Notes under the pieces: generated by a model
Database searches by the model: none
Told to the model about the DNA's origin: nothing
The model's input: only the letters and a program-made list of their open reading frames with translations
Translations under genes and position numbers: made by a program
Part shown: positions 5,339-30,064 of the stretch, piece after piece
Position numbering within the stretch: the first letter of the stretch is position 1
How the letters are laid out: each line of letters starts with the position of its first letter
DNA from: an uncultured Erysipelotrichaceae bacterium
Lineage (GTDB): Bacteria > Bacillota_I > Bacilli_A > Erysipelotrichales > Erysipelotrichaceae
Assembly (NCBI GenBank): GCA_942493105.1
Contig: OW818668.1
Location: 660,001 to 692,000 of the forward strand
Reading direction: 5' to 3'
Length of the DNA: 32,000 nt

Positions 5339-6889
5339 ATGAGAAGATGGCGTAGTTACATTGAGATCACCAGCTTTCCCATCAAGGTTGTTTTTATCGC
5401 CACCATCATGCTTGGCTTAAGCACGATGATTCTTAATCCGAATTTTGTGACCTTAGTTGGATCCATTGATGCCATAAGTATTGGTGCTCGGATCTCTAAA
5501 TATATCGCATCTTCAATTATCGGAGCTTTCCCGCTGATATTTTTGATGAAAATCGTACATCGAAGAGATGATGACCCCATGATCACAGCAGCAGCTTTGG
5601 TTGGGTTCTTGACTTTACATATCATGACGATGTTTATCAATTCTACAGAACTGAACTCACAAGTATTTCGCTCTACATTGGGTCTTATTTTAGACACAAC
5701 AGCCTTAGGTAATAATGTATTGGGTGCTGTCAACCCTATTTATACAGGCATAATAGGTTCACTCATCGTATTTTTTACGACGCGTGGTGCCAATAAGATG
5801 ATCAGCAGAAGATCTGAGTATAGTGTATGGAATTTTATCGATAAACAAAGTGCCTTGATGGTCTGGACTGTGATTTTTTCGGCCATAGGTGGGGTATTGG
5901 TTGCTCTTACATGGCCATTTGTGGTCCAGTTCGTCATGTCGATTTTCTATTTTATCGCAAGTGATTTAAATAACCCTATTCATATTTTTATTTATGGAAT
6001 TGTCGATCGAGTCAGTGATGTTTTAGGACTCCATTTATGGATCCGTAAGCTGTTTTGGTTTGGAGAATTGGGTGGTTCATGGTCAGATGCCTTTGGAGTC
6101 TACCATTTGGGTGATGTTGCCATGTGGACAGGCCAAATTAAGAGTAGCTTGTTTAATTTAGGAAGCGGAAGATTGATCACGCCTTACTATATACTCAATA
6201 TATTTGTGGTACCTGCCTATTTGATCAGCATCTACCAAGTGTATACCGATAAAATCGAGAAAGTTAAGATGAGAATATTCATCGTCATCGCAGCTTTAGC
6301 TTCCATCTTGTTTGGAACTTTGTTGCCGATCGAATTGTTCTTGTTGTTTTCGGCTCCATTGCTGTATGTCTTCCATTTGGGGATGACTGGCATCCTATTT
6401 GGTTTATTAACGTCACTTAAAGTTCAAATTGGATATGCGTATACAGGAAGCGTCATTGGGGCAACCCCTGGCAGTTTGTTTGATTTGATGATCTATGTTC
6501 GTAATCCTGCTTTGCAGAAATCTCTTTTGATCTTATTGCTGGTAGGCATCGTTACTTTCTTAGCTTACTTAGCGATGAGCACTTACTATTATCGTAGAAT
6601 TGCGGTTAATTTTATAACCGTAAGTGAAAAGGACAGTATGATTGAAGAATTGCTAGATTGTTTAGGTGGTTTAGAGAACATAAAACTCTTCAACTCAAGT
6701 CTTTTTAATCTAACAATACAGGTCTATGATCGCAATATGGTTGATTTCTTAAAAATCAATCATCATTATATAACGCGTATCGTTGAATCAAAAGCTGGGT
6801 ATTCGTTGACTTATGGGGCTTGCAGTCATATCTTATGGATGGAAATCCAGCACAGACTCAAAGAATTGTCCTATCAACAAAGTGCCTGA
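5339..6889 (+). CDS. PTS EIICB-like membrane protein (glucose family) with degenerate catalytic motifs
   Basis: AGGAGG lies 7 nt upstream of the start. The segment LFGTLLPIELFLLFSAPLLYVFHLGMTGILFG aligns with PtsG [31 protein letters not shown]. The C-terminus LLDCLGGLENIKLFNSSLFNLTIQVYD aligns with the EIIB segment [23 protein letters not shown], with the Cys and both Arg residues replaced. Confidence 0.65.
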   Translation: MRRWRSYIEITSFPIKVVFIATIMLGLSTMILNPNFVTLVGSIDAISIGARISKYIASSIIGAFPLIFLMKIVHRRDDDPMITAAALVGFLTLHIMTMFINSTELNSQVFRSTLGLILDTTALGNNVLGAVNPIYTGIIGSLIVFFTTRGANKMISRRSEYSVWNFIDKQSALMVWTVIFSAIGGVLVALTWPFVVQFVMSIFYFIASDLNNPIHIFIYGIVDRVSDVLGLHLWIRKLFWFGELGGSWSDAFGVYHLGDVAMWTGQIKSSLFNLGSGRLITPYYILNIFVVPAYLISIYQVYTDKIEKVKMRIFIVIAALASILFGTLLPIELFLLFSAPLLYVFHLGMTGILFGLLTSLKVQIGYAYTGSVIGATPGSLFDLMIYVRNPALQKSLLILLLVGIVTFLAYLAMSTYYYRRIAVNFITVSEKDSMIEELLDCLGGLENIKLFNSSLFNLTIQVYDRNMVDFLKINHHYITRIVESKAGYSLTYGACSHILWMEIQHRLKELSYQQSA

Positions 6890-6907
6890 GCACTTTGTTT
6901 TGTTAAG
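6878..6907 (+). terminator. Rho-independent terminator candidate overlapping the stop codon of the EIICB-like gene
   Basis: The 8-bp stem caaagtgc (6878-6885) pairs with gcactttg (6890-6897) around the loop ctga, followed by ttttgtt. Confidence 0.55.
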
Positions 6908-6923
6908 TCTAAAGAGGTAACCT

Positions 6924-9452
6924 ATGGAAAAGCTTACGCCCATGCTCAAACAATACATGGATGTTAAAAAAGAATACCAAGATGCTTTGGTCATGTTTCG
7001 CTTGGGAGATTTTTATGAGTTGTTTTTCGATGATGCTAAGATTGCTTCCTATGAACTTGATTTGGTATTGACAGGACGAGCTGCAGGCGAATTGGGCAGA
7101 GCTCCGATGTGTGGAGTCCCCTATCATGCAGTCAGTTCTTATATTCAAAGATTGGTCAATAATGGTCATAAAGTTGCGATCGTTGAACAGATGGAAGATC
7201 CGGCCACAGCACAAGGTTTAGTTAAGCGAGATGTCGTCAAAGTGGTGACACCGGGAACTGTCATGGATGAGATCTATGACGATAAGACCACTGTATCGAT
7301 CGCATCGGTTACTGAATTTGCGTCTAAATACTTTGTGGTCAGTGCAGAATTGGCCTCTGGTGAACTGAAGTCTGTGACTTGTTTAAAAGATGAAGCTCAC
7401 TTAAAAGAAATCTTATATAAACATCAAGTCAAAGAAGTGGTTGTTTCATCAAAACTATCTCAAACCTGTCTTAAAATCCTGCGTGAAGCCAGACAAACCA
7501 TCTCGATCTGTGATGAGATTGAAATCGATAAGAGTTATATTTCGCTTTCTAGAGCCATCAATGATCCTGTGAGTCTGGAAACGTTTGGGCGCTTATTAAA
7601 TTACTTACTTTTGACTCAAAAAAGAAGTTTAAGACATCTTCAACCGATCATTGATGAAGATCAAGATCAATGTTTAAACATGGATATGGCGACCATACTT
7701 AACCTGGAGTTGGTTGAAAGTTTACGTGCTAAGACAAAAAAAGAAAGTCTGTTTGGTTTTCTGGATGAATGTCAAAGTGCAGCAGGCTCACGTCAACTTA
7801 AAAAGTGGATCATACGTCCTTTGCTTGATAAAACTCAAATCCAAACCCGTCAAAACCAAATTGCTTATTATGTGAATGCCTTTTTAAAGCGAGATGAACT
7901 TAGAGTGGCCTTAAGACAAACCTATGATATTGAACGCATTATCGGTAAGATCGCATATGGTTCTGCAGGTCCTGTCGATCTTTTACGCTTATCTAAAACA
8001 CTCAATCAAGTTCAACCCATTATGGCAACCTGTGATCCTAAGATCTATGAAACCTATGTCTCACTTGACCCCATGGATGAGCTCAGAGACCTCTTAAATA
8101 AAGCCATAGATGAAACTGCCCCAGCACTCTTAAAAGACGGTAATGTCTTTAAGAAAGGCTACAATGAGGAATTGGATGCATTACGTGAACTACAAGAAAA
8201 CAGTGCCCTCTGGTTGATTGATTTTGAGAACTCTGAGAAAGAAAGAACTCAAATCAAGAACTTAAAAGTAGGCTATAATCGAGTTTTTGGTTACTATATC
8301 GAGATTTCTAAAGGCAATGTTCATCTTGTAAAACCTGAATTTGAATATCATCGCAAGCAGACCTTAAGTACTGGAGAGCGCTATATCAATCCTATCTTGA
8401 AGCAAAAAGAAGAAGATATACTGGGTGCTAACGATAAAGCACTGCGTCTTCAGCAACGTCTATTTTTAGAACTGATTGAAATCATAAGATCTAAACTTGA
8501 TGCTTTGCAAGTTTTATCCAAAGCATTATCTGAACTTGATGTATTCCAAGCTTTGGCAACCATTAGTCATCAAGGTAACTACATCAAACCTGAGTTTCAT
8601 GATGGTTTTGAGTTAAACATCACAGAGGGACGTCATCCGATTCTAGAAACAAGAACCAAATATGTCCCCAACTCGACCCATTTTACTCAAAATCATCCCA
8701 TACATCTGTTGACAGGTCCCAATATGGGAGGTAAAAGCACCTATATGAGACAAGTTGCATTGTTGGTTATCATGGCTCAAATGGGTATGTATATTCCCGC
8801 AAAAAAAGCGGATTTATCGCTCATTGATGCGATTTATACTCGAATGGGGGCCAGTGATGACATCCTTGAGGGTCAATCAACTTTCATGGTAGAAATGATC
8901 GAAGCCAATAATGCCCTACAAAAAGCCAGTTCTAATGCGTTGATCTTATTTGATGAGATCGGAAGAGGCACCTCGACTTATGATGGGATGGCTTTGGCTC
9001 AAGCTATGGTGGAATATATTGCGACCGTCATTCAGTGTAAAGCAATCTTCTCAACGCATTATCATGAGCTCACCAATTTAGAAGGTCCTTTACCCAAACT
9101 TATTAATATGCATGTGGAAGTCATCGAAGACAAACATGAAGTTCATTTCTTATATCGTGTCAAACATGGTAAAGCAGATAAATCCTATGGGGTCAATGTG
9201 GCTCGTTTAGCCCATCTTCCTGAATCTGTTTTAGAACGTGCCAGTATCTTGCTCAAAGAACTGGAATCTAAGAAACGTATCGTTCAACAAACCCTAGACA
9301 TCGTAGAAATCGTAAGAACCCCTAAAGAAGTCCAAGCCATCATCGATCAACTCACTACCCTAGACATCAATGAAACGACCCCCATCGAAGCTTTACGCTA
9401 CCTCAATGACTTCAAAGAAACACTGAAGGATAAAAAACATGGGAAAAATTAG
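6924..9452 (+). CDS. mutS: DNA mismatch repair protein MutS
   Basis: 842 aa. N-terminus TPMLKQYMDVKKEY..FRLGDFYELFFDDA, Walker A GPNMGGKST, and the STFMVEM and DEIGRGTSTYDG motifs. Confidence 0.97.
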   Translation: MEKLTPMLKQYMDVKKEYQDALVMFRLGDFYELFFDDAKIASYELDLVLTGRAAGELGRAPMCGVPYHAVSSYIQRLVNNGHKVAIVEQMEDPATAQGLVKRDVVKVVTPGTVMDEIYDDKTTVSIASVTEFASKYFVVSAELASGELKSVTCLKDEAHLKEILYKHQVKEVVVSSKLSQTCLKILREARQTISICDEIEIDKSYISLSRAINDPVSLETFGRLLNYLLLTQKRSLRHLQPIIDEDQDQCLNMDMATILNLELVESLRAKTKKESLFGFLDECQSAAGSRQLKKWIIRPLLDKTQIQTRQNQIAYYVNAFLKRDELRVALRQTYDIERIIGKIAYGSAGPVDLLRLSKTLNQVQPIMATCDPKIYETYVSLDPMDELRDLLNKAIDETAPALLKDGNVFKKGYNEELDALRELQENSALWLIDFENSEKERTQIKNLKVGYNRVFGYYIEISKGNVHLVKPEFEYHRKQTLSTGERYINPILKQKEEDILGANDKALRLQQRLFLELIEIIRSKLDALQVLSKALSELDVFQALATISHQGNYIKPEFHDGFELNITEGRHPILETRTKYVPNSTHFTQNHPIHLLTGPNMGGKSTYMRQVALLVIMAQMGMYIPAKKADLSLIDAIYTRMGASDDILEGQSTFMVEMIEANNALQKASSNALILFDEIGRGTSTYDGMALAQAMVEYIATVIQCKAIFSTHYHELTNLEGPLPKLINMHVEVIEDKHEVHFLYRVKHGKADKSYGVNVARLAHLPESVLERASILLKELESKKRIVQQTLDIVEIVRTPKEVQAIIDQLTTLDINETTPIEALRYLNDFKETLKDKKHGKN

Positions 9453-11166: not shown

Positions 11167-12071
11167 AAAAAGTACTGGTCATCGCAGGTCCTACTGCGAG
11201 CGGAAAGAGTGCCTTTGCGATAGAATGTGCCTTAGCATTTAATGGGGAAGTCATCAATGGTGATTCTCAGCAAATCTATACCCAACTCAATATCGGGACC
11301 GCAAAGATCACAGATGAAGACAAAAAAGGAGTCGCTCATCATCTGTTAAGCATCTTAGATTATAGCCAGTCTTATAGTGTTGCGGATTTTCAAAAAGATT
11401 GTCGAAAAAGCATTCAAGAAATCTCTGACCAGCATAAGTTACCTATCTTATGCGGTGGGTCAGGCCACTATTTAAAGTCAGTCCTCTATGATTATGATTT
11501 CCCAAAAGAAACTTTTCCTAGTGAAACCTATGACTTAATCAGTGATGAAGAACTCTATGAACGATTACTTAAAATTGATCCTATTGCGGCACAAAAGATC
11601 CATCCCAACAATCGAAAAAGGGTCATAAGAGCACTCAATATGGGATTAAGCGGTACATTAAAATCAGATCGTGAAGCAGCTCAAAACCATCAGCCGATCT
11701 ATGATGTGTATATGGTCGTACTAGATCTTGAACGAGCTCATTTAGTTGAACGTATCGAAAAAAGAGTCGAAGAGATGTTTAAACAAGGCTTAGAAACGGA
11801 AGTCAGGACTTATTTTAGTTCTCAAGATGCACAATGCTTTCAAAGCTTCCAAGGAATAGGGTATAAAGAATTCAGGGAAGTGCTCAATGAGAATAAATCA
11901 ATAGAATTGGCTAAGTCTGCCATCATCACACATACCCGTCAATATGCGAAAAGACAGTTGACATGGTTCAGACATCAATTCAAAGCTCAATGGGCAAATC
12001 CAACACATCAAGAATCCATGAAACAAGTCATGGAAGACATAAGCCATTGGCTTCACAAGGAGAACATATGA
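11163..12071 (+). CDS. miaA: tRNA dimethylallyltransferase
   Basis: 302 aa with the GPTASGKS P-loop, GDSQQIY and GGSGHYLKS. ATGA overlap with mutL. Confidence 0.95.
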   Translation: MKKVLVIAGPTASGKSAFAIECALAFNGEVINGDSQQIYTQLNIGTAKITDEDKKGVAHHLLSILDYSQSYSVADFQKDCRKSIQEISDQHKLPILCGGSGHYLKSVLYDYDFPKETFPSETYDLISDEELYERLLKIDPIAAQKIHPNNRKRVIRALNMGLSGTLKSDREAAQNHQPIYDVYMVVLDLERAHLVERIEKRVEEMFKQGLETEVRTYFSSQDAQCFQSFQGIGYKEFREVLNENKSIELAKSAIITHTRQYAKRQLTWFRHQFKAQWANPTHQESMKQVMEDISHWLHKENI

Positions 12072-12574
12072 AAAAAATAGTAATCGGCGGTGGTTGTTTC
12101 TGGGGCGTTGAAGAATATTATCGACGTTTAAAAGGCATAGAAGCCACCAGAGTGGGTTACGCTCAAGGCATTACTGAAAACCCAAGTTATCAAGATGTTT
12201 GTTCAGGCAAAACCAAACATGCGGAAGTCGTAGAGTTGGTTTATGATGAAAATATCATCACGCTCAAGAAGATCCTTGAACATTTATTCAGATTCATCGA
12301 TCCTACGACACTTAATCGTCAAGGTCACGACATCGGAACGCAGTATCGCGTTGGTGTTTATTATGAAGATGAAGCAGATGCTCAAATTGCCCGTGACTAC
12401 ATCCAAGAAAAGCAAGCCAGTTATAAAAAACCAATCGTACTTGAAGTTGAAAAGACTGGGATATTTTATGATGCGGAGACCTATCATCAGAAATATCTGA
12501 TCAAGAATCCAGGTGGGTATTGTCATGTGAATATGAACTTGATCAAACCCGAAGAAATGAAAGTCAAAATCTAA
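12068..12574 (+). CDS. msrA: Peptide-methionine (S)-S-oxide reductase
   Basis: MKKIVIGGGCFWGVEEYY (GCFWG active site), then HAEVVELVYD and TYHQKYL. I chose the start at 12068 (ATGA overlap with miaA) rather than the ORF-track start at 11963, which lies inside miaA. Confidence 0.93.
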   Translation: MKKIVIGGGCFWGVEEYYRRLKGIEATRVGYAQGITENPSYQDVCSGKTKHAEVVELVYDENIITLKKILEHLFRFIDPTTLNRQGHDIGTQYRVGVYYEDEADAQIARDYIQEKQASYKKPIVLEVEKTGIFYDAETYHQKYLIKNPGGYCHVNMNLIKPEEMKVKI

Positions 12575-14653: not shown

Positions 14654-14759
14654 ACAAGATCACTTGTGAAAATACTAATTTATTGACACATAGTTTGGTG
14701 AAATGTGTTAGACGTGTGAAAATTAAGTCGTTAAAAGTGAAAGAAGTGCGATGTTTAAC

Positions 14760-14788
14760 TTGATTGTTACTTGTGAATTTTTTATAAT
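14760..14788 (+). promoter_or_regulatory. Sigma-A type promoter candidate for the lipoprotein gene
   Basis: TTGATT (14760-14765), a 17-nt spacer, then TATAAT (14783-14788), about 25 nt upstream of the ATG at 14814. Confidence 0.55.
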
Positions 14789-14813
14789 AAGTATGTTTCA
14801 AGGAGGAAATGAA

Positions 14814-15872
14814 ATGAAAAAAGTATTAGTTGGTTTACTCGCAATCGCGATGCTAGCCATTACTCTGACTGGCTGCACTACAGAGAAGACTTACAAGTAT
14901 GGAACAGGGATCAGTATCAAAGTTACTGGAGCTGCTGCAGTTCCTGCTGCCGGCGAAGTTGCTGCTAAAGATGGCAATTATGCTGTAAACACCGACATCG
15001 TTACCGTTGTTTTAGACAAAAATAACAAGATTGTCAGCGCTACATGGGATGTTGCTCAATCCAGCAATTTGAAATTTGATGTTACTGGCTTATTAAAAGT
15101 TGACTTGGCTACATACTCCATGAAGACAAAACTTCAAAAGGGTACAGAATACGGCATGTCAGCAAATTGCGTAACAGGCCAAATTTGTAAAGAATGGAAT
15201 GTTCAATCAAAATTCTTCACTGACTATTTAGTTGGTAAGACTGTTGATCAAGTTAAGGCTATTGAAATGGTTGATGGCTATGCAAAAGATGCAGCAATCA
15301 AAGCTGGAACAACTGTCCACATCAATGGATTCTTCCCAGCATTCGAAAAAGCTGTTGCTAATGCAGTAGAAGCTAAAAAAGTTGCTAAATTCGGTGTTGG
15401 TATCAGTATCAAAGTTACTGGTGCTGCTGCTGTTGCTGCTGCTGGTGAAGTTGCTGCAAAAGATGGTAACTATGCAGTCAATACAGACGTTGTTTCAGTC
15501 TTGCTAGACAAGAATGACAAAGTCATCAGTGCTGTTTGGGATGTTGCTCAATCCAGCAATTTGAAATTTGATGTTACTGGCTTATTAAAAGTTGACTTGG
15601 CTACATACTCCATGAAGACAAAACTTCAAAAGGGTACAGAATACGGCATGTCAGCAAATTGCGTAACAGGCCAAATTTGTAAAGAATGGAATGTTCAATC
15701 GAAATCCTTCACTGACTATTTAGTTGGTAAGACAGTAGCAGAAGTTAAGGCTATTGAAATGGTTGATGGCTACGCAAAAGATGCAACAATCAAAGCTGGA
15801 ACAACTGTCCACATCAATGGATTCTTCCCAGCATTCGAAAAAGCTGTTGCTAATACTGTCGTTATCAAATAA
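14814..15872 (+). CDS. Lipoprotein of unknown function made of two tandem ~164-aa repeats
   Basis: AGGAGG lies 7 nt upstream. The signal peptide MKKVLVGLLAIAMLAITLTGC carries an L-T-G-C lipobox. The mature protein is two copies of the same domain (GISIKVTGAAAV...KDGNYAVNTD...WDVAQSSNLKFDVTGLLKVDLATYSMKTKLQKGTEYGM...KEWNVQSK...GTTVHINGFFPAFEKAVAN). The ORF-track start at 14751 runs through the promoter and was rejected. Confidence 0.8.
   Translation: MKKVLVGLLAIAMLAITLTGCTTEKTYKYGTGISIKVTGAAAVPAAGEVAAKDGNYAVNTDIVTVVLDKNNKIVSATWDVAQSSNLKFDVTGLLKVDLATYSMKTKLQKGTEYGMSANCVTGQICKEWNVQSKFFTDYLVGKTVDQVKAIEMVDGYAKDAAIKAGTTVHINGFFPAFEKAVANAVEAKKVAKFGVGISIKVTGAAAVAAAGEVAAKDGNYAVNTDVVSVLLDKNDKVISAVWDVAQSSNLKFDVTGLLKVDLATYSMKTKLQKGTEYGMSANCVTGQICKEWNVQSKSFTDYLVGKTVAEVKAIEMVDGYAKDATIKAGTTVHINGFFPAFEKAVANTVVIK
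14896..15857 (+). repeat. Intragenic tandem duplication, period 492 nt (2 copies)
   Basis: Positions 14910 and 15402 align, as do 15045 and 15537. Positions 15045-15208 are identical base for base to 15537-15700 (164 nt). The preceding ~135 nt differ at many, mostly synonymous, positions. Confidence 0.95.
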
Positions 15873-21131: not shown

Positions 21132-22157
21132 ATGAAAGTACAAAAAATTCACTTAGATGAGATGTTTCGTTGTTATGCGACATCAGCCATTACGTTAGAT
21201 GATCAACTTCATCTCTTTTATGCCAGCGAAGAAAAAGATTATCCTTGCTTTGCTTATAGCGGTAAGGATTTTAAAGATAAAAAAGTTGTTTGGGAAAAAG
21301 GCGGAGGAACCATGTCGATGATTCCGATTCCCGGACGCAAGAATCAGTTTTTGGCTGTCAATGGGTTCTATTTAAAAGAAACACCCAGTGGTGCACATTT
21401 GACATGGGTCACTTATGATAAACAAAAAGGGTTTATTTTAAAAGATATTCTGCATTTGCCTTATCTGCATCGTTTTGACCTTTATGAATCACAAGGGAAA
21501 GTTTACTTTGTTGGGGCAACCATTGCAGAAAGCAAAGAGCATAAAGAAGACTGGAGTAAAGCAGGCAAGATCTATGTAGCTGAGTTGCCAAAAGATCTCA
21601 ATGAAACACTAAATCTTAAAATCATCGCAGAAGGAATGTTCCGTAATCATGGTTATACCCGTTCACACCAAAATGATGGTGGTTATTTTACATCTGACCA
21701 AGGTATTTTTAAAGTAACTATTCCAGATCATTTAGGAAACTGGAAAGTAGAAAAGATCCTTAATAAACCAGTTGGAGAAATAGCGGTCATCGACATCGAC
21801 AATGATGGCCAAGAAGAATTGATGACGATTGAACCTTTCCACGGAAATGTGATCAAGATCTATAAGAAAATCAATGACACCTATAAAGATGTTTACAGTT
21901 ATCCTTACGTGATCGATTTTGCGCATACTTTGGTTGGCGCTAGAATCAGAGGTGTCAATAGTTTTATTGGTGGAGTACGCCGGGAAGCATCTGATCTATT
22001 CATGGTTCAATTCATCAATGGTAAGTTTGAAACAACATTGATTGATAAAGGTGTAGGTCCTGCTAATCTTAATGTGGTCAATTTAGAGGATTGTGATTTG
22101 ATTCATTCCAGTAATCATACTCAAAATGAAGCTGCGGTCTACGTGATCACAGACTAG
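21132..22157 (+). CDS. Uncharacterised protein, beta-propeller / FG-GAP-like signature (gene X of the ula operon)
   Basis: AAGGAGA RBS. 341 aa, with no TM helix or signal peptide. It has repeated beta-strand-rich segments and a calcium-loop-like [21 protein letters not shown] motif of FG-GAP/VCBS type. It shows no similarity to the OMP-decarboxylase-fold UlaD. Confidence 0.65.
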
Positions 22158-22861: not shown

Positions 22862-23693
22862 GTCGTATCAGCTGGGTCTTTATGAGAAAGCATTGCCTTC
22901 AAACTTAACTTGGGAAGAAAAATTAAGTGCTGCTAAAGTTAGTGGTTTTGATTATCTTGAAATCAGTGTTGATGAATCAGCCGAAAAACTATCAAGACTA
23001 GATGATGAAAAGATTGTTGAAGAAATTCAAGCAGCCATCAAGAATACAGGGATTCCTATACTGTCTCTATGTTTAAGTGGTCATCGTAAGTATCCTTTAG
23101 GATCTCACGATGAAAACATCAGAGCCAAATCATTAGAAATCATGGAGAAGGCGTGTATCTTAGCTGTAAAGTTAGGGGTCCGTTATATCCAGTTGGCAGG
23201 CTATGATGTGTACTATGAAGATCATGATGAATCGACTCAACTCGAATTTGAAAAGAATCTGAAGAAATGTGTCAAATTGGCTTCAAAATATGGCGTTATC
23301 TTAGCCTTTGAAACTATGGAAACACTGTTTATGGATACCGTTAAAAAAGCCATGAGATATGTTGATCAAAACAACTCACCTTATCTTCAAGTCTATCCAG
23401 ATGTTGGGAATTTGACCAACGCATCACGCATCTCCAAGATCAGTGTTGAGGATGATTTATATAGCGGTAGAGGGCATATCGTTGCGGCACACCTAAAAGA
23501 AATCATTGAAGGTCATTATCGCGATATTCCATTTTCAACCGGTGACACTCATTATAAAGAAGCTGTGCGTGAACTAAAAAAACAAGGGGTTGCCTTGTTT
23601 GTAGGAGAGTTTTGGTTTATTGGTAGTCCAACTTGGAAAGAAGATCTCGTATTTGCGAACAATTATCTTAGAAATATCATCGAGACAAATTAG
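22848..23693 (+). CDS. ulaE: L-ribulose-5-phosphate 3-epimerase (L-xylulose-5-P 3-epimerase)
   Basis: LGLYEKALP...[18 protein letters not shown]...[13 protein letters not shown]...[11 protein letters not shown]...YPDVGNL is colinear with E. coli UlaE ([59 protein letters not shown]). The start at 22848 gives the same N-terminal length as UlaE. The in-frame ATG at 22830 is an alternative. Confidence 0.9.
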
Positions 23694-24084
23694 ATTTAAC
23701 CTGATCAAAATAAGAAGATTCAAGCAAATAGGCGACTTGATATTGAAGTGCCAAGTCATATAAAAACTGTTTGATTTCTAAAAGTTCAGTCTCTTCATTT
23801 AACCAAAGACGAAGTTCATTATCAAACTTCGTTTTTTCTTGTGTCGTACAGATTTTTTTAAAGTAACCCCAGACATGCTCAAGGGCTGTTTGTTGATGGC
23901 CTTTATGATCGGGCTGATGTTTCGCGATTTGAATGAGTTCTATATAGGCATGTTCATCTGGCGATGTTTTGTTTTTTAATAAAGACCGTATCTTTTGATA
24001 GGTTGCAGGATCTTTCTCAAGTATTTCATATTTTAAGATCGCCCATTGTTTTTCTAAACGAGCAATAGGTTTTTCATTCATCAT
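23677..24084 (-). CDS. DUF1722 (YbgA-like) domain protein
   Basis: 135 aa. The HVWGYFKK...EK motif and the terminal YLLESSYF resemble the YbgA/DUF1722 pattern (H..GYFKK..s..EK ... YL..Q.Y). The start at 24084 forms an ATGA overlap with the upstream gene's stop. Confidence 0.65.
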   Translation of the reverse strand: MMNEKPIARLEKQWAILKYEILEKDPATYQKIRSLLKNKTSPDEHAYIELIQIAKHQPDHKGHQQTALEHVWGYFKKICTTQEKTKFDNELRLWLNEETELLEIKQFLYDLALQYQVAYLLESSYFDQVKSNLSR

Positions 24085-24893
24085 ATATATCCAACCATCA
24101 TCCATACAAGGAAACCAAATACAGAAACAACGATCACATTGCTTAACAGATTGACCATATTATTATCTAACCATGCAAAGCCATGGATCAGTTTAGCTTG
24201 TTTGTAGTGAGGTGTTTCGATAACGACTAAATGCTCATCAAGATACTTTGCTTGAAACAGTTCTCCTAAAACGCTATCCACGATAGAACCCATAAATCCT
24301 CCAAACCAACACATAAGCGACATTATCAGTAAGTTTATATGATATCCACTAATTAATGACATCATGACTAAATAAGGTAGTGAAATCAAAGCACTGCCCC
24401 ACAATGAAGCCCATAATCCTAGCTTCGTAACCCCTCCAGATAATCCTTTGGTGATATTTTTACGGCTGATCAATCCATATGGAAGATCAGAACTTATTGA
24501 ACCAATTTCAGAGGCCCACGTATCTGAGGTTGAGGCGGCCATAGATAATGCAGCCATAAAGATAAGAAGCTGTGAAGGCGTAAAAAAGTAGATTAGACTA
24601 ATGATTCCTAATAACCCACCATTGGCGAAAACTTGGATCCAGTTTCGTGGTCCATGTTTTACAATCAGTACTTTTCCCGGTATCACAACACCACTTATTT
24701 TCTGAATCATCAGCGATGACATAAAGAAAATCATCAACCATATAAAGAAGATCCAAGATCCAAAGCCATAAATGATCGTTCCTAAAAGTAAGGCACTATA
24801 AAAACCACTTAAGGTCAGTTTCGATTTTCTATAGGCAATAAATGCCACCCCAAAACTTAAAATGAACCCAATGAATAATTGTGTTGTATTCAT
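24081..24893 (-). CDS. DUF92 / TMEM19-family integral membrane protein (the family of plant VTE6 phytyl-phosphate kinase)
   Basis: 270 aa and polytopic, with the family signature SDTWASEIG and a downstream GLSGGVTKLG. ATGA overlaps occur at both ends (24890-24893 and 24081-24084). Confidence 0.72.
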   Translation of the reverse strand: MNTTQLFIGFILSFGVAFIAYRKSKLTLSGFYSALLLGTIIYGFGSWIFFIWLMIFFMSSLMIQKISGVVIPGKVLIVKHGPRNWIQVFANGGLLGIISLIYFFTPSQLLIFMAALSMAASTSDTWASEIGSISSDLPYGLISRKNITKGLSGGVTKLGLWASLWGSALISLPYLVMMSLISGYHINLLIMSLMCWFGGFMGSIVDSVLGELFQAKYLDEHLVVIETPHYKQAKLIHGFAWLDNNMVNLLSNVIVVSVFGFLVWMMVGYI

Positions 24894-25540
24894 AGTATGG
24901 ACAAGATAAAGCTGATTAAGCTTACCAATAAAGGAAGGCTGAGATTATCAATTCCATTTGGTGAAAAAAGCTCAACGACCATGGCTACAACCCCAACAAT
25001 CAAACTTTTTATAAACCAGAAATTTGGTGAATAGATATAAAAGAAAATCCCTGAAATAAAAATACCAAAACCCAATACAACACTGGCACCTTCTATACTT
25101 TTCCCAAACCACAAGCGATGTTTTCCATACTTTCTTCCAATTAATGCCGCAAAACCATCCCCATAACCCATAATCAAGATCCCGATGCCTCCGATATATG
25201 CTAAATCAGCCGCAAATGTTACATAAGTCAAAATCAACAAGGAGATCGCATAATAGACAGTCCCCCATTCTTGTCTACCTGACTTGCGTTCCATGGCTGT
25301 AAAAATTTGTTTCTTCATCGAAAGCGTGTTAATGAAAACAAACATCAATGGGACAAAACTGGCCCATAACGGATCATCAAAAGTCAGCATTGCTAAGATC
25401 CACCAATTGCTGACAGCGATATGAATGAATTTGCGACTGCCTTCATCACTAAGGATCTTTTTCTTATTTAAAATGGTAGAGATCCCAATCGTCATGAAGA
25501 CAAACACAAAGGATAAAACGATACCAATCAGGTTGTTCAT
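24890..25540 (-). CDS. CTP-dependent polyprenol/phytol/dolichol kinase-like membrane protein (VTE5-like, CdsA superfamily)
   Basis: 216 aa. SRKFIHIAV, GYGDGFAALIGRKYGKH..FGKSIEGA and a C-terminal ELFSPNGIDNLSLP match the phytol/dolichol kinase pattern (RK.vH., GDG.A..iG...G, KS.EGS, E....DN..vP). The start at 25540 is preceded by AAGGAGA. The ORF-track start at 25558 has no RBS. Confidence 0.7.
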   Translation of the reverse strand: MNNLIGIVLSFVFVFMTIGISTILNKKKILSDEGSRKFIHIAVSNWWILAMLTFDDPLWASFVPLMFVFINTLSMKKQIFTAMERKSGRQEWGTVYYAISLLILTYVTFAADLAYIGGIGILIMGYGDGFAALIGRKYGKHRLWFGKSIEGASVVLGFGIFISGIFFYIYSPNFWFIKSLIVGVVAMVVELFSPNGIDNLSLPLLVSLISFILSIL

Positions 25541-25591
25541 GAGATCTCCTTTCCACACTCAACTAATGACTTCGACATATATTTCTTACAA

Positions 25592-26542
25592 TCAAAGATA
25601 GCCTTCTATTTCAATGCCGCAATGATCAGAACTGAGATTAAGATCAGACTGACCCTTTTGAGTCAAAATGAGCTCAATGCTTCCCCCAAGACCTTCCTTG
25701 ATGGTTTTGATCATACTGCCTAAGTGAGGCGATCTGAGTTCTCCGCTGACTGGAATATGGGCAAGCACTTTTAGAATTGTTGAACCTTTTTTGAGTGCAA
25801 ATTCAAAACCATCTTCTGTCTTCTTTAAAGAAGTCATCTTAGAAAAGGTATAGGTCGCAAAACGATATCGTTTATGAGGCAAATCCAGTTGGCAAATCAA
25901 ACCTTCAAAAGAAAGTCCTAAAAAAGGAATATGGGCGATACTGGCCATAAAACTTGTTTTTGGGTCTTTAAAATGATTGCCTTGAATCCAGATGTATTTC
26001 TTTGGAAATGATCTTCCCCAGTCTTTTTCAATATAACCTCGTTCTTGTTTAAAGGTATAAAGATGATGATTGATGTTTAAGGTCCCGTTAACGTGATGGT
26101 TCATACTGATGACCCCATGATTACATTCCATATTGGGAATATAGGCAAAAGGACCCATGATGTTGGGCATTAAGGGTTTATGTTCAAGGGTTTGATGATT
26201 TGTATAATATAAGATCCCATCGATGATCAAGCCTTCTTGGTGTAAATGAAGTTCTAATTCATGTAGACTAAAACGATTTTTATCTAAAGTGAATCCTTCC
26301 CCATCAACTTTAAAGGCGTCTAGAGGAAATTTATAATAGGCTGTAGATAAAGGATTTGACTGTATGACTTGTACAAAACTATGCGGATCTTGTTTACCAG
26401 TACTGATCCCAAAAATAAAACTGATGGTTTTGTCTTGTTCGAGATGAACCTGTTTAAAATACCAGCCTTCGAAATAATTGGGTTTGGTCAATGATCCTTG
26501 AAGTTGAAACGGATGTTTGATCTTAGAAAGTGTGCTCTTCAT
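25592..26542 (-). CDS. Tocopherol cyclase (VTE1) family protein
   Basis: 316 aa. The N-terminal NYFEGWYFKQV and the internal ERGYIEKDWGRSFPKKYIWIQGNHF line up with my recollection of Arabidopsis VTE1 ([32 protein letters not shown]). No signal peptide or TM helix. Confidence 0.75.
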   Translation of the reverse strand: MKSTLSKIKHPFQLQGSLTKPNYFEGWYFKQVHLEQDKTISFIFGISTGKQDPHSFVQVIQSNPLSTAYYKFPLDAFKVDGEGFTLDKNRFSLHELELHLHQEGLIIDGILYYTNHQTLEHKPLMPNIMGPFAYIPNMECNHGVISMNHHVNGTLNINHHLYTFKQERGYIEKDWGRSFPKKYIWIQGNHFKDPKTSFMASIAHIPFLGLSFEGLICQLDLPHKRYRFATYTFSKMTSLKKTEDGFEFALKKGSTILKVLAHIPVSGELRSPHLGSMIKTIKEGLGGSIELILTQKGQSDLNLSSDHCGIEIEGYL

Positions 26543-26608
26543 GAGAATATTATACCTAAAAAGCGTTCGTTTTGATTTTAGAATGCATATAAGGTATAAA
26601 TAAGATAC

Positions 26609-27550
26609 ATGATTAAAAAAATACTCAAAGCTTTTTTATTTTTATTGATTTTCTTGATGATACTTCCGTATTTCATCCCAACGGACTATTCTAAGAAAGC
26701 ACCTGATAAACCTTATGAGAATTCGGTGTTTTTTACGACCGAAAGTGGACTTAGACTACACACTCAAGTATCTTATGCGGTAGGGGAAGAAAAAGGAAAG
26801 ATATTGTTGATCCATGGATTGATGGCATCCACCTTTTCATATCGTAAAAACATACAATTCTTGAGCGATCAAGGATATACCGTTATTGCAGTTGATTTGC
26901 CTGGTTTTGGATATAGTGATAAACCGTCTGATTTTAAATATACTCAAGTTAATTTTGCGTCGTTTTTGTGGGAAATGTTGGATGATTTTGATGCTCAGAA
27001 TAACAGCCAAAGTGCTTGGCATTTGGTGGGTCACTCCATGGGAGCTTCTACGACCTTAGCGATGGCTCTACAGAATCAATCGAAGATCATAGACATCACG
27101 ATGATCGCAGGTGCAGCAAACCAAGGATCGAATTCAGCTGGATACTTAATGGATACGCCTATAGGGGCATGGCTTAAAGTAGCGTTAAGATATTTTTTGC
27201 TCAATGAAAAGAATTTTAGTAATTTACTTAAAGATGTCTATCAGAAAGAAGTTCCTCAAGAAGCGGTAGATGGATATCTAGAACCTGTTTTAATTAAAGG
27301 AACGATCAATGGTTTGCTTCAATTTGTGAAGACTTCTAGGAATGTGACGATCGATGAAGTAAAGGGACTTAATCTAAAAATCAATTTGATATGGGGTGGA
27401 AAAGATACGTGGGTTCCTGTAGAAAACATGCAGATCATACAAGAAACAGTGACTGTAGCACAAACCTATATATTTGATGATGCTGGACATACTCCGCATG
27501 AAACAGAATCAGGATTCAATGAAGTTTTGTTGAATATGATTCAGAATTGA
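26609..27550 (+). CDS. Membrane-anchored alpha/beta-fold hydrolase
   Basis: N-terminal TM anchor (AFLFLLIFLMILPYFI), HG oxyanion motif (LLIHGLMAS), nucleophile elbow GHSMG, and a C-terminal catalytic His context DDAGHTPHETE. Confidence 0.85.
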   Translation: MIKKILKAFLFLLIFLMILPYFIPTDYSKKAPDKPYENSVFFTTESGLRLHTQVSYAVGEEKGKILLIHGLMASTFSYRKNIQFLSDQGYTVIAVDLPGFGYSDKPSDFKYTQVNFASFLWEMLDDFDAQNNSQSAWHLVGHSMGASTTLAMALQNQSKIIDITMIAGAANQGSNSAGYLMDTPIGAWLKVALRYFLLNEKNFSNLLKDVYQKEVPQEAVDGYLEPVLIKGTINGLLQFVKTSRNVTIDEVKGLNLKINLIWGGKDTWVPVENMQIIQETVTVAQTYIFDDAGHTPHETESGFNEVLLNMIQN

Positions 27551-27568
27551 TATGAACAGTTATCATAT

Positions 27569-27597
27569 TTGACAAAATAACGTTCTAACGCTAAAAT
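27569..27597 (+). promoter_or_regulatory. Promoter candidate upstream of the riboswitch-like leader
   Basis: TTGACA (27569-27574), a 17-nt spacer, then TAAAAT (27592-27597). This places the transcription start a few nt before the predicted P1 helix. Confidence 0.55.
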
Positions 27598-27602
27598 AGT
27601 CG

Positions 27603-27690
27603 CATACTGAGCAGGCGATGAACCGATAAGGTTTGTGGGGCTGGGCCATTAAGGCAGTGGAATTCAAGTGATCCACGGGACAGAATGTGT
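27603..27690 (+). promoter_or_regulatory. Candidate NiCo (czcD-motif) riboswitch aptamer
   Basis: It lies in the 5' leader of a CDF exporter gene. It contains ACUGAGCAGGC...GGGCC...GGCAGUGGAA...CCACGGGACAG, which matches my recollection of the conserved junction nucleotides of the czcD motif. The closing helix is CAUACUG (27603-27609) with CAGAAUG (27681-27687). Internal hairpins are AACC/GGUU and GUGGA/UCCAC. Confidence 0.6.
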
Positions 27691-27704
27691 TTCGTGGGTT
27701 TTTT
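27672..27704 (+). terminator. Riboswitch expression-platform terminator
   Basis: The 11-bp stem (3 G-U pairs) uccacgggaca (27672-27682) pairs with uguuucguggg (27688-27698) around a 5-nt loop, followed by six U (27699-27704). The left arm is built from the 3' strands of the aptamer helices, so the two folds are mutually exclusive. Confidence 0.7.
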
Positions 27705-27725
27705 ATACCCAATAGGAGAAAATGT

Positions 27726-28625
27726 ATGTCTATTTCTGTTAAATCAATCAAACGTATTCTTTGGGTCATCCTATTTGCGAACGTCGCGGTAGCATTGGCT
27801 AAAATCGGATTGGGAACACTAAGCAATTCTGCTTCTATTTTGGCAGATGGATTTCATTCCTTGACCGATGGGTCCAGTAATGTCATAGGACTGGTTGGGA
27901 TGTCTTTGGCGAGCCGTCCTGTCGATGATGATCATCCTTACGGTCATGGTAAATATGAGACCCTAAGTTCCTTACTGATTGTCGGGATGCTTTTCTTCTT
28001 GAGCTTTCAAATCATCAGTGAAGCCATTTCCAAGTTTTATAATCCTGTTATGCCTACTATTGATATCATTACCTTTGTGGTCATGGTTTCAACCTTGATC
28101 ATCAACTTGTTTGTGACAACGTATGAATATAAACAAGGCAAGAAACTTCATTCAACGCTACTCATGAGTGATGCGATGCATACACGAAGTGATGTGTTTG
28201 TTACATTAGGGGTTATTTTATCTCTTATCTTGATCAAACTTGGTTTACCGATTTGGATCGATCCTTTGGTTTCTTTAATCGTTGCAGGCGTTATCTTGTT
28301 TGCTGCCTATGAGATTTTTAAGATGGCCAGTGCTATTTTACTGGACTCCAAAGTAGTCGACGAAGACATCATCAAAGAAGTCGTCATGCGTTTACCTGAA
28401 GTCAAAGGGGTTCATCATATACGTTCAAGAGGTACATTATCCAATTTGTTTATTGACTTGCATGTATTAACGGATGCCCAAGTGACTTTGATCGATGCCC
28501 ATTATTTATCACACACGATTGAAAGGGTACTTCAAGATCATTTTGAAGATTCAATGGTGCAAGTCATTACACACCTAGAACCTTTTAATCCCAAATATCA
28601 ATCAGATTCACCCCAACAGCCATAA
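27726..28625 (+). CDS. czcD: Cation diffusion facilitator (CDF) family divalent-metal efflux protein
   Basis: AGGAG lies 7 nt upstream of the ATG at 27726. ILADGFHSLTDGSSN (TM2 HxxxD site), HPYGHGKYE, MSDAMHTRSD (TM5 HxxxD) and a C-terminal cytoplasmic domain are present. The ORF-track start at 27687 lies inside the terminator. Confidence 0.88.
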   Translation: MSISVKSIKRILWVILFANVAVALAKIGLGTLSNSASILADGFHSLTDGSSNVIGLVGMSLASRPVDDDHPYGHGKYETLSSLLIVGMLFFLSFQIISEAISKFYNPVMPTIDIITFVVMVSTLIINLFVTTYEYKQGKKLHSTLLMSDAMHTRSDVFVTLGVILSLILIKLGLPIWIDPLVSLIVAGVILFAAYEIFKMASAILLDSKVVDEDIIKEVVMRLPEVKGVHHIRSRGTLSNLFIDLHVLTDAQVTLIDAHYLSHTIERVLQDHFEDSMVQVITHLEPFNPKYQSDSPQQP

Positions 28626-28713: not shown

Positions 28714-29019
28714 ATGAATGCACAATTTAAAAAAGGCGTGTTGGAACTCTGTGTGTTAGCACAATTAGCTAAGAGTGAACAATATGGCTACGAGCTGACA
28801 GAAACTATTTCTCAAGAAATGAGTGTCGCCAGCGGGACTTTATACTTACTACTGAGACGTCTAAAAGATGAGCAGTATGTAGAAACCTACTTGGTTGAAA
28901 CTGCTGAAGGACCTGCTCGCAAGTACTATAAACTCACACCAAAAGGTCTTGAATATACCGAATTATTGAAGCATGGCTGGATGGATTTCATTCAGCAAGT
29001 CGATCGGTTGATCCAATAG
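28714..29019 (+). CDS. PadR-family transcriptional regulator
   Basis: 101 aa. GVLELCVLAQLAKSEQYGYEL...SGTLYLLLRRLKDEQYVE...ARKYYKLTPKG is the PadR wHTH signature. Confidence 0.9.
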   Translation: MNAQFKKGVLELCVLAQLAKSEQYGYELTETISQEMSVASGTLYLLLRRLKDEQYVETYLVETAEGPARKYYKLTPKGLEYTELLKHGWMDFIQQVDRLIQ

Positions 29020-29032
29020 AAAGGGGACCATC

Positions 29033-30064
29033 ATGACACAGAAAGAATACTTAAATCAATTAGCAGAAGCATTGGATGCTTTAAATCCACAAGATAAAGA
29101 TGAACTGATGGCTGATTTTAAAGAACATTTTGATATCGGACTCAGTGAAGGAAAATCAGAAAAAGAAATCATTGATTCATTGGGACCTGTAGGTGAGTTG
29201 GTTCAGTCACTAGATCTCAAACGATTGGAAAATCATAAACAAGAGTCGCATGATTCTAGAAAAGTATTCGGCTCAACGATCCAACGTGTCGTTATCGATG
29301 GTGTGCATGCGGATGTTACCATCAACGCTTCTCAAGATGATCAAACTCACATCGATTATGAAATATCAAAACGAGTTTTAGGCAAACTATCTACACAAGT
29401 AACGACCAAACAAGAAGGCAATACACTTTTTGTAACAGTCACCAATGAAAATCGACTCTTTAAACATAGTGTTGATCCTGTCGATCTTAGCTTTGAACTT
29501 CCCAAGACATTGGTAGAATTAATATGTAAAACAGCCAGTGGAGATATAAGAATCGATGATTGTGTTATAGAACACCTAGATCTTCATAGTTTGAGCGGAG
29601 ACATCGGTGTCGATGATTTGAAAGCAAAAAACATCAAAGTGATCGGAGTTTCTAGTGACATTGATCTCACTGCGATCAGCGGTGACCTTCAAATCAAAAC
29701 AGTCAGCGGAGATGTCAATATCTTTGAACATGATGGCGATGCTTGCACGATTGAAACGGTAAGCGGAGATATTGAATATGATGGAAGTGCTCATCAAATG
29801 CGAATCAATTCAACTTCTGGTGACGGTAGTCTAAAAGCTCCTGATGTTTATACCTTAAGCATCAATACAGTGAGTGGTGACTATGAACTAGAGTTGGATA
29901 TTGAAAAGAAAGGATGCTCGATTGCCTTCATTTCCAATAGTGGATCCCTAAGTATTGGAGATGCCGAATATGATACGCCCAGACATAATCAAACCATCAC
30001 GATTGGTGATGGATCAACCAAAGTCAATCTAAAAAGTGTCAGCGGAGATTTCGAAATAGAATAA
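29033..30064 (+). CDS. DUF1700 (HAAS-like) N-terminal domain fused to a DUF4097-type beta-helical repeat domain
   Basis: The N-terminus (KEYLNQLAEALDALNPQDKDELMADFKEHFDIGLSEGKSEKEIIDSLGP) is typical of DUF1700. The C-terminal half has about 10 repeats of an (S/T)-G-D-h motif every 17-20 aa (ASGDIRI, LSGDIGV, SSDIDL, ISGDLQI, VSGDVNI, VSGDIEY, TSGDGSL, VSGDYEL, NSGSLSI, VSGDFEI). I see no hydrophobic TM segment. Confidence 0.75.
   Translation: MTQKEYLNQLAEALDALNPQDKDELMADFKEHFDIGLSEGKSEKEIIDSLGPVGELVQSLDLKRLENHKQESHDSRKVFGSTIQRVVIDGVHADVTINASQDDQTHIDYEISKRVLGKLSTQVTTKQEGNTLFVTVTNENRLFKHSVDPVDLSFELPKTLVELICKTASGDIRIDDCVIEHLDLHSLSGDIGVDDLKAKNIKVIGVSSDIDLTAISGDLQIKTVSGDVNIFEHDGDACTIETVSGDIEYDGSAHQMRINSTSGDGSLKAPDVYTLSINTVSGDYELELDIEKKGCSIAFISNSGSLSIGDAEYDTPRHNQTITIGDGSTKVNLKSVSGDFEIE

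Follow-up and report, generated by a model that had tools for sequence, protein, structure and literature searches.

A tocopherol-cyclase-family locus of an Erysipelotrichaceae bacterium as a possible trimmed form of a light-associated isoprenoid island

What brings bacterial relatives of the plant tocopherol enzymes together at one locus, and on what substrates might they act? The question is raised by five genes, here called cyc, kin, DUF92, DUF1722, and abh, in a 32,000-nucleotide stretch of an uncultured Erysipelotrichaceae bacterium (positions 660,001 to 692,000 of contig OW818668.1, assembly GCA_942493105.1; hereafter the window). A first-pass annotation had proposed that they form a prenol-salvage and cyclisation module. 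Relatives of the window show that two genes, crtI and psy, have been deleted from between cyc and kin, and in more distant genomes members of the same gene set recur beside crtI, psy, heliorhodopsin, and photolyase genes. The best reading of these links is that they concern light-associated isoprenoid lipids and not vitamin-E-type chemistry. We judge the chances evenly balanced that the locus is a trimmed remnant, specific to its lineage, of a light-associated isoprenoid island that is widespread among monoderms, given to prenol salvage and protonation chemistry.

The five-gene locus and its deletion history

All five open reading frames are present as previously annotated, with four genes on the minus strand and abh divergent from them across a 66-bp intergenic region. 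cyc (25592–26542) encodes a 316-aa protein of the tocopherol cyclase family with a predicted AttH-like double beta-barrel; kin (24890–25540) a 216-aa polytopic, CTP-type polyprenol-kinase-like protein placed in the COG0170/PF01148 superfamily; DUF92 (24081–24893) a 270-aa integral membrane protein of the VTE6 (phytyl-phosphate kinase) family; and DUF1722 (23677–24084) a 135-aa YbgA-type protein. abh (26609–27550, plus strand) encodes a 313-aa, membrane-anchored alpha/beta hydrolase. The motifs quoted in the first-pass annotation (NYFEGWYFK, EKDWGRSFPKKYIWIQGNHF, RKFIHI, GDGFAALIGRKYG, KSIEGA, SDTWASEIG, and GHSMG) are all found in the translations, and the closest named relatives are Erysipelotrichaceae metagenome-assembled genomes; it is relatives at 86–91% identity that support placement in this family.

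Signals of co-transcription support the co-expression that had been proposed. The stop codon of kin and the start codon of DUF92 overlap as ATGA, as described earlier; the second overlap, between DUF92 and DUF1722, takes this form only if DUF1722 starts at the 8th codon (24084) of the longer open reading frame (start at 24105). This start is the one called in the public record (P0241) and also fits orthologues of 130–134 aa. For kin, the start is the ATG at 25540, seven bases past the ribosome-binding site GGAAAGGAG; the mechanically defined reading frame begins at GTG 25558. The 3′ end of DUF1722 overlaps a convergent ula-type gene. Both promoters presumably lie in the 66-bp region between abh and cyc (26543–26608), where a promoter search gave one weak match on the plus strand (26524–26553) and no convincing match on the minus strand. 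No Rfam element was detected within the five-gene locus, this region included.

The 51-nt spacer between cyc and kin (25541–25591, minus strand), which contains the kin ribosome-binding site, is a deletion scar, since relatives of the window hold crtI and psy, or stubs of them, at this point. These syntenic relatives have common flanks, with ula-type sugar genes on one side and CDF transporter, PadR, and DUF4097 genes on the other. In L094 and L095, whose cyc is 71% identical to that of the window, a 496-aa crtI of the phytoene desaturase family (TIGR02734, 466 bits against a cut-off of 238) lies convergent with cyc, between it and psy-kin; a 279-aa SQS_PSY gene (psy) heads a psy-kin-DUF92-DUF1722 operon with overlapping starts. 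Residues 203–279 of psy remain in the cyc-kin gap of L099 and L100 (E = 2e-23). L093 and L097 retain psy residues 211–270 with an in-frame stop, together with the last 14 crtI residues on the opposite strand, and L085 has a faint psy trace, having lost kin-DUF92 too and kept cyc. The same five genes as in the window are found in L091, with proteins 70–91% identical, and the two spacers align as the same post-deletion junction; the deletion is therefore older than their split. L095, which has the crt genes, falls among relatives without them in the tree of cyc, and the losses of crtI and psy were therefore repeated. Across the window clade, crtI and psy were lost first and kin-DUF92 next; cyc, abh, and DUF1722 were always kept. 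The adjacency of cyc and kin, which formed part of the proposed module, is secondary to the loss of crtI and psy.

The five genes are under purifying selection after the loss of crtI and psy. Comparison of the window with L091 gave ratios of nonsynonymous to synonymous substitution rates (dN/dS) of 0.056 for cyc, 0.13 for kin, 0.215 for DUF92, 0.15 for DUF1722, and 0.084 for abh, with 0.05–0.075 for four flanking genes; dS was 0.6–1.5 over all nine genes and there were no internal stops. Decay of the window genes as pseudogenes is ruled out by the range of dN/dS (0.056–0.215) and the intact reading frames.

Gene linkages in related loci

We assembled two sets of related loci. A profile of kin retrieved 80 metagenome loci (the kinase-anchored set), corresponding to 54 groups after dereplication at 90% kinase identity; a profile of cyc retrieved 80 species-genome loci from many phyla (the cyclase-anchored set), in which partners were scored within 8 kb. 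In a raw census of the 80 kinase loci, DUF92 was directly downstream in 67 (plus 3 fragments) and psy directly upstream in 36 (+9); crtI was found in 29 (+3), cyc in 21, heliorhodopsin in 14, abh in 8, and DUF1722 in 4. kin and DUF92 form an almost obligate pair, the second directly downstream of the first in 43 of the 47 dereplicated groups with room for it, and in L170 a single 544-aa reading frame (5737–7371) has a kin-like N-terminal half fused to a DUF92 domain (residues 288–535). COG1836, to which DUF92 belongs, has been linked to phytol-phosphate metabolism, and its pairing and fusion with COG0170 are already published (PMC3223725, PMC5898192). The L170 fusion and the pair itself agree with those reports; the published archaeal context, however, is UppS and glycosylation (PMC5898192, PMC3223725), whereas the dominant context in the kinase-anchored loci is a phytoene-synthase-type operon. 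psy directly precedes kin in 25 of the 40 dereplicated groups with room. The SQS_PSY genes all score below every NCBIfam equivalog cut-off, and the HpnD and CrtB models fit about equally, which leaves C30 and C40 products undistinguished.

The order crtI-psy-kin-DUF92 occurs in 12 loci, and in seven loci heliorhodopsin followed by cyc is divergent from this four-gene block. Two Acholeplasmataceae loci of the cyclase-anchored set (L023, L033) are arranged likewise, with crtI, psy, kin, and DUF92 reading one way and heliorhodopsin and cyc the other. In 13 loci a 460-aa photolyase gene (PF00875 + PF03441) directly follows DUF92. Among the 80 cyclase-anchored loci, heliorhodopsin (PF18761, E = 8e-99) lies on the same strand 56–87 bp upstream of cyc in eight, and abh, in the form of a related anchored hydrolase, lies 6–12 bp downstream of cyc in three, the heliorhodopsin loci L011, L021, and L031. 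Orthologues of abh adjoin cyc in every syntenic relative of the window. In L157, a separate lineage, abh, kin, DUF92, and cyc form one closely packed operon in this order, with no crt genes in it. LitR/MerR-type regulators are absent from the recurrent neighbour families of the related loci. The kin-DUF92 pair, the abh-cyc adjacency, and the L157 operon indicate that these genes belong together, and prenol salvage is for this reason a reasonable core of the proposed module.

Must they belong to one pathway? It is rather unlikely, in our estimation, that they do not, in which case kin-DUF92 would serve general polyprenol or lipid-carrier recycling, cyc and abh would have unrelated lipid functions, and their adjacency would be a by-product of deletion in an eroding island. 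Such a view would accommodate the scar at the cyc-kin junction, the retention of cyc in L085 after loss of kin-DUF92, the 18 kinase loci that carry kin-DUF92 without any other island gene, the link of archaeal DUF92 to UppS, and the many cyc genes, the majority, that stand alone. It accounts poorly for the independent linkage of cyc with kin-DUF92 in three arrangements (the window, L157, and Acholeplasmataceae types), for a neighbour-joining tree of cyc in which all linked genes, the window clade included, fall in one half of the family, and for an abh-cyc adjacency that recurs in unrelated lineages at 22–30% identity. Chance juxtaposition of cyc with kin-DUF92 was also considered as a full explanation and is ruled out by the recurrence in three arrangements.

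The heliorhodopsin linkage has precedents. Tocopherol cyclase has been listed as a heliorhodopsin neighbour (bioRxiv 10.1101/2021.02.16.431466), and published neighbours also include photolyase and carotenoid genes; an interaction of heliorhodopsin with photolyase has been published as well. Heliorhodopsin genomes are reported usually to lack blh and to need some other retinal route, and heliorhodopsin itself is reported to be restricted to monoderms. The tight same-strand pair of heliorhodopsin and cyc beside crtI-psy-kin-DUF92 would suit a supply of chromophore or antenna to heliorhodopsin, which we regard as a long shot. kin-DUF92 would replace CrtE by salvaging geranylgeraniol to geranylgeranyl diphosphate, crtI and psy would lead to lycopene, and cyc would cyclise lycopene in a non-canonical way, as a carotenoid cyclase or hydratase of a new class. 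Another enzyme, perhaps abh, would then yield retinal or a bound carotenoid in monoderms without crtY and blh, and the window would keep the enzyme core only. No known lycopene cyclase or blh is present among the recurrent neighbours, which is in keeping with this scheme, as is the usual absence of blh reported for heliorhodopsin genomes, and cyclase chemistry agrees with the predicted fold of cyc. However, most cyc genes lie far from heliorhodopsin, including those of diderm phyla, and no more than 3 loci join abh to the heliorhodopsin-cyc pair. In the window clade, moreover, cyc persists where heliorhodopsin and the crt genes are missing, and the psy scores do not discriminate between C30 and C40 products.

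Three side observations concern these loci. DUF2177 and DUF1295 genes, the latter encoding a steroid-reductase/ICMT-like membrane protein, recur upstream of heliorhodopsin-cyc-abh (L011 2681–3905, L021, L031, L035), and DUF2177 has previously been reported as a characteristic heliorhodopsin neighbour. In heliorhodopsin loci without cyc (L104, 4046–4861 and 12161–13727), a photolyase/cryptochrome-type gene (FAD_binding_7) lies near crtI, and DUF429 is directly upstream of heliorhodopsin. In L159 (9607–11906), the cyc gene of an abh-kin-DUF92-cyc operon is broken by PD-(D/E)XK-type transposase genes, with a 112-aa cyc-like reading frame beyond them (12046–12384); in L157 (9474–10475), by comparison, cyc is intact, a single transposase gene of that family is present, and the 112-aa cyc-like reading frame again lies downstream.

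The five proteins and their surroundings

Profile searches were confined to the five locus proteins of the window and placed cyc, DUF92, DUF1722, and abh in the families expected from the first-pass annotation, with kin matching no model. cyc matches Tocopherol_cycl (PF14249; E = 1e-18, 67.8 bits against a cut-off of 26.6), the alignment being restricted to residues 129–314 and model positions 146–335, i.e., the C-terminal half of the VTE1 model. It carries GYIEKDWG (N to D) and FPKKYIWIQGNHF (first W to Y), which match the conserved motifs YxEKNWG and FP+xWxW+QxNxF described in a 2016 study that also flagged tocopherol-cyclase-like proteins, of unassigned function, in heterotrophic bacteria (PMC4963081). 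Residues E172, K173, D174, W175, and G176 are invariant across 14 homologues, and the family as a whole has 5043 matches, with Bacillota, Mycoplasmatota, Bacteroidota, Spirochaetota, and archaea represented. The predicted structure, an all-beta double barrel, is confident (pLDDT 85, pTM 0.85). Foldseek searches with this model returned AttH (2ich), kievitone hydratase (7a0t), the Diels-Alderases Fsa2, Phm7, and CghA, and 25-phosphosteroid lyase at E-values of 1e-8 to 1e-6. As modelled, cyc shares the AttH fold with kievitone hydratase and other isoprene hydratases; enzymes of the AttH family add water to isoprene double bonds and so form tertiary alcohols (bioRxiv 10.1101/2025.10.20.683597). 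The double beta-barrel is shared with CrtC, kievitone hydratase, the hydroxy-GDGT synthase Hgs, and 25-phosphosteroid lyase, enzymes whose targets are isoprenoid double bonds or tertiary carbons. In contrast to this shared fold, their identity to cyc is only 8–15%, and cyc belongs to the VTE1 family in Pfam, not to that of CrtC.

The plant and cyanobacterial VTE5-VTE6-VTE1 route resembles the bacterial loci in its three protein families, in a two-step CTP-type conversion of prenol through prenyl phosphate to prenyl diphosphate, as predicted here for kin and DUF92, and in a protonation-type cyclase. The bacterial genes differ in that they lie in operons of non-photosynthetic monoderms, have a shorter cyc, and are linked to crtI, psy, heliorhodopsin, and photolyase in place of homogentisate prenyltransferase and methyltransferases. 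In a tocochromanol-type route, a prenol freed by abh would be taken to its diphosphate by kin and DUF92, a UbiA-type enzyme from an unlinked gene would prenylate a quinol (e.g., menaquinol), and cyc would close the chromanol ring to give a membrane antioxidant, a product that would suit a light-stress neighbourhood. The PF14249 match with VTE1 motifs and the VTE5 and VTE6 families of kin and DUF92 argue for it, and both the L157 operon and the retention of the genes after crtI/psy loss fit a carotenoid-free pathway. We nevertheless think it distinctly unlikely, given that only the C-terminal half of cyc aligns with the VTE1 model, that the enzymes with the nearest solved folds need no phenol for their action on isoprene double bonds, and that no aromatic prenyltransferase or quinol methyltransferase is found among the recurrent neighbour families in the local context of about 160 related loci. 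Many hosts (e.g., Acholeplasmataceae and Erysipelotrichaceae), moreover, are not known to produce quinones, which also counts against it. Reading the translated open reading frames of the window by eye revealed no homogentisate prenyltransferase or methyltransferase, in agreement with the first-pass annotation, and the recurrent neighbours in 166 related loci include neither; the annotation's tocochromanol-like logic and suggested menaquinol substrate are not borne out, the recurrent partners being crtI, psy, heliorhodopsin, and photolyase.

Membership of kin in the VTE5/FOLK/PolK-type prenol kinase family is supported indirectly. Among its 1028 homologues, source names include phytol kinase, dolichol kinase, and diacylglycerol/polyprenol kinase family, and 3 of 20 homologues at 51–55% identity (P0025, P0045, P0106) reach PF01148 (best E = 9e-8); as it is these homologues and not kin itself that match, membership is by transitivity only. 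Residues R36-K37-x-x-H40, D128-G129, G151, E190, and D198-N199 are invariant in 20 homologues. The spacing of R-K-x-x-H is that of the CTP clamp of the Plasmodium prenol kinase PfPolK, and VTE5, VTE6, and PolK constitute a two-step CTP-dependent salvage route (PMC10849223). The AlphaFold model is all-helical with nine helical segments (pLDDT 89). A PDB search with a 20-sequence kin profile found nothing. Homology between kin and DUF92, published by others, was not reproduced (hhalign probability 1% with shallow alignments). DUF92 itself matches PF01940 strongly (E = 6e-57, 193 bits against a cut-off of 27.5); its 79.6 bits against TIGR00297 fall below the cut-off of 205.85, and it is therefore not that equivalog.

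abh matches Abhydrolase_1 (E = 3e-25) and has the nucleophile elbow GHSMG. A partial match to Chlorophyllase (PF07224; 32.2 bits against 26, model positions 45–146 of 301) lies beneath this far stronger generic match. The N-terminus carries a hydrophobic anchor or signal, MIKKILKAFLFLLIFLMILPYFIP; its positive charge followed by a single hydrophobic segment suggests an outward-facing domain, with catalysis probably at the outer face.

DUF1722 has PF08349 as its sole Pfam domain (E = 3e-17, 63.4 bits against a cut-off of 22.5). Proposed earlier as a fourth component, it proves to be no general one, as it occurs in just 3 of the 54 kinase groups, all from the clade to which the window belongs, and in no cyclase-anchored locus out of 80. 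In that clade it fills the slot after DUF92 that a photolyase gene holds in 13 other loci. The E. coli gene ybgA overlaps phr by 4 nt, and genes for RudS, a tRNA s4U desulfidase in which an N-terminal TudS [4Fe-4S] domain is fused to DUF1722, sit in light-responsive operons with photolyase and carotenoid genes (PMC11417400). Like these, the window gene is translationally coupled to its neighbours, in a slot taken by photolyase in related islands; unlike them, it stands alone without TudS and follows DUF92 instead of preceding photolyase. Two 130-aa homologues (P0243, P0246) are named "UV DNA damage endonuclease" by NCBI/JGI. This name does not suit proteins whose one domain is DUF1722, and it may stem from the annotation of other records.

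The flanks of the locus contain several further features. A NiCo (nickel/cobalt) riboswitch (27596–27685, plus strand), which scores 52 bits where the gathering score is 37, immediately precedes the CDF cation-efflux gene (about 27687–28625) and accounts for strong promoter-like and terminator-like matches at 27569–27700. PadR and DUF4097 (HAAS-type) genes follow (28714–30064, plus strand) and are kept in all syntenic relatives. In Geotoga petraea (L001; 10264–11298), DUF4097, arsenic-resistance-type genes (SBF, LMWPc, ArsR), and crtI-psy-kin-DUF92 occur together, with kin 53% identical to that of the window, which gives a hint that a larger block has passed between Thermotogota and Erysipelotrichaceae. 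On the other side, an ascorbate-type PTS/ula operon includes a gene for a 341-aa protein (21132–22157, plus strand) that keeps its position in relatives (L085 11217–12242, L093 12819–13859), where it has no Pfam family on record. Farther off, a 300-nt direct repeat (14907–15206 and 15399–15698, plus strand; 90% identical, spaced 492 nt) lies inside a 373-aa lipoprotein-like reading frame (14751–15872), and the protein therefore has two near-identical modules.

A candidate pathway and its meaning

The families of cyc, DUF92, DUF1722, and abh, the recurrent linkages, the deletion history, and purifying selection are established by the results above; we infer the enzymatic steps and substrates that follow, and likewise any connection to light in the window organism. 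The full island consists of heliorhodopsin, cyc, and in some cases abh, divergent from crtI, psy, kin, DUF92, and in some cases photolyase, with DUF1722 in the window clade. Deletion of crtI and psy put kin-DUF92-DUF1722 directly behind cyc, presumably under its promoter. As a membrane-anchored serine hydrolase, abh may free or re-esterify an isoprenoid alcohol; kin would convert the alcohol to a prenyl monophosphate as a CTP-dependent prenol kinase, and DUF92, as a VTE6-type prenyl-phosphate kinase, would produce the prenyl diphosphate. This pool would feed the phytoene/squalene-synthase-type enzyme in full islands and the remaining users of prenyl diphosphate in the window organism. cyc could protonate a C=C bond of a polyprenyl or carotenoid chain, leading to ring closure or water addition, by the protonation chemistry common to VTE1, kievitone hydratase, and the CrtC and Hgs hydratases, which are of one family with it. 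DUF1722 may be an accessory protein of light or UV stress, in the slot held elsewhere by photolyase.

Rhodopsin "photosystem" clusters combine crtE-crtI-crtB-crtY-blh with proteorhodopsin. The full island is similar in having a rhodopsin gene beside crtI/crtB-type genes and roughly one gene per needed step. It differs in that the rhodopsin is a heliorhodopsin and crtE, crtY, and blh are absent, with kin-DUF92, cyc, and sometimes abh in their places. The crtM-crtN type carotenoid operons of Bacillota provide a two-gene core of synthase and desaturase in low-GC monoderms, to which the island, by contrast, adds kin-DUF92 in the same operon; the window has lost this core. Full-text searches found no description of a crtI-psy-kin-DUF92(-photolyase) operon paired with heliorhodopsin-cyc, or of the Erysipelotrichaceae derivative with DUF1722. 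The first-pass annotation had called its gene combination undescribed, which has to be qualified: the kinase/DUF92 pair and its fusion, the bacterial cyclase-like proteins, and the heliorhodopsin neighbourhood are published, and the assembly of the whole island is apparently undescribed.

Several results weigh against a light-associated isoprenoid island as the source of the locus and against the roles proposed for its proteins. No partner gene occurs within 8 kb in 66 of the 80 cyclase-anchored loci. crtI, psy, heliorhodopsin, and photolyase are all missing from the 32-kb window, so that its link to light and carotenoids is one of descent and not of present content; cyc and abh are never lost in the clade, and their substrate is therefore independent of the island's own pigment. 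Many host lineages look anaerobic, where photoprotection is a less obvious need. As to kin, no Pfam or NCBIfam model matched it even at E ≤ 10, its sequence search of the PDB was empty, and Foldseek with its confident model returned nothing from the PDB at E ≤ 0.001; CdsA (4q2g) appears in that list only at rank 28, without significance (E = 2.7, TM 0.31). BLASTP of the window DUF1722 against E. coli YbgA gave no significant match, and no activity was detected for stand-alone YbgA (PMC11417400).

These linkages give the bacterial tocopherol-cyclase-like proteins candidate substrates, i.e., carotenoid or polyprenyl chains, and candidate partners. Prenol salvage, above all its second kinase, is poorly defined outside plants, and operons or fusions that couple both kinases to a consumer of prenyl diphosphate offer a clean test system. 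A cyc gene that many genomes place 56–87 bp behind heliorhodopsin is plainly a candidate partner for it. The locus in the window is a reduced derivative, and its value is that of a lead exposing a larger system. It is also a natural experiment, in which selection still acts on cyc, abh, kin, and DUF92 after the loss of crtI and psy.

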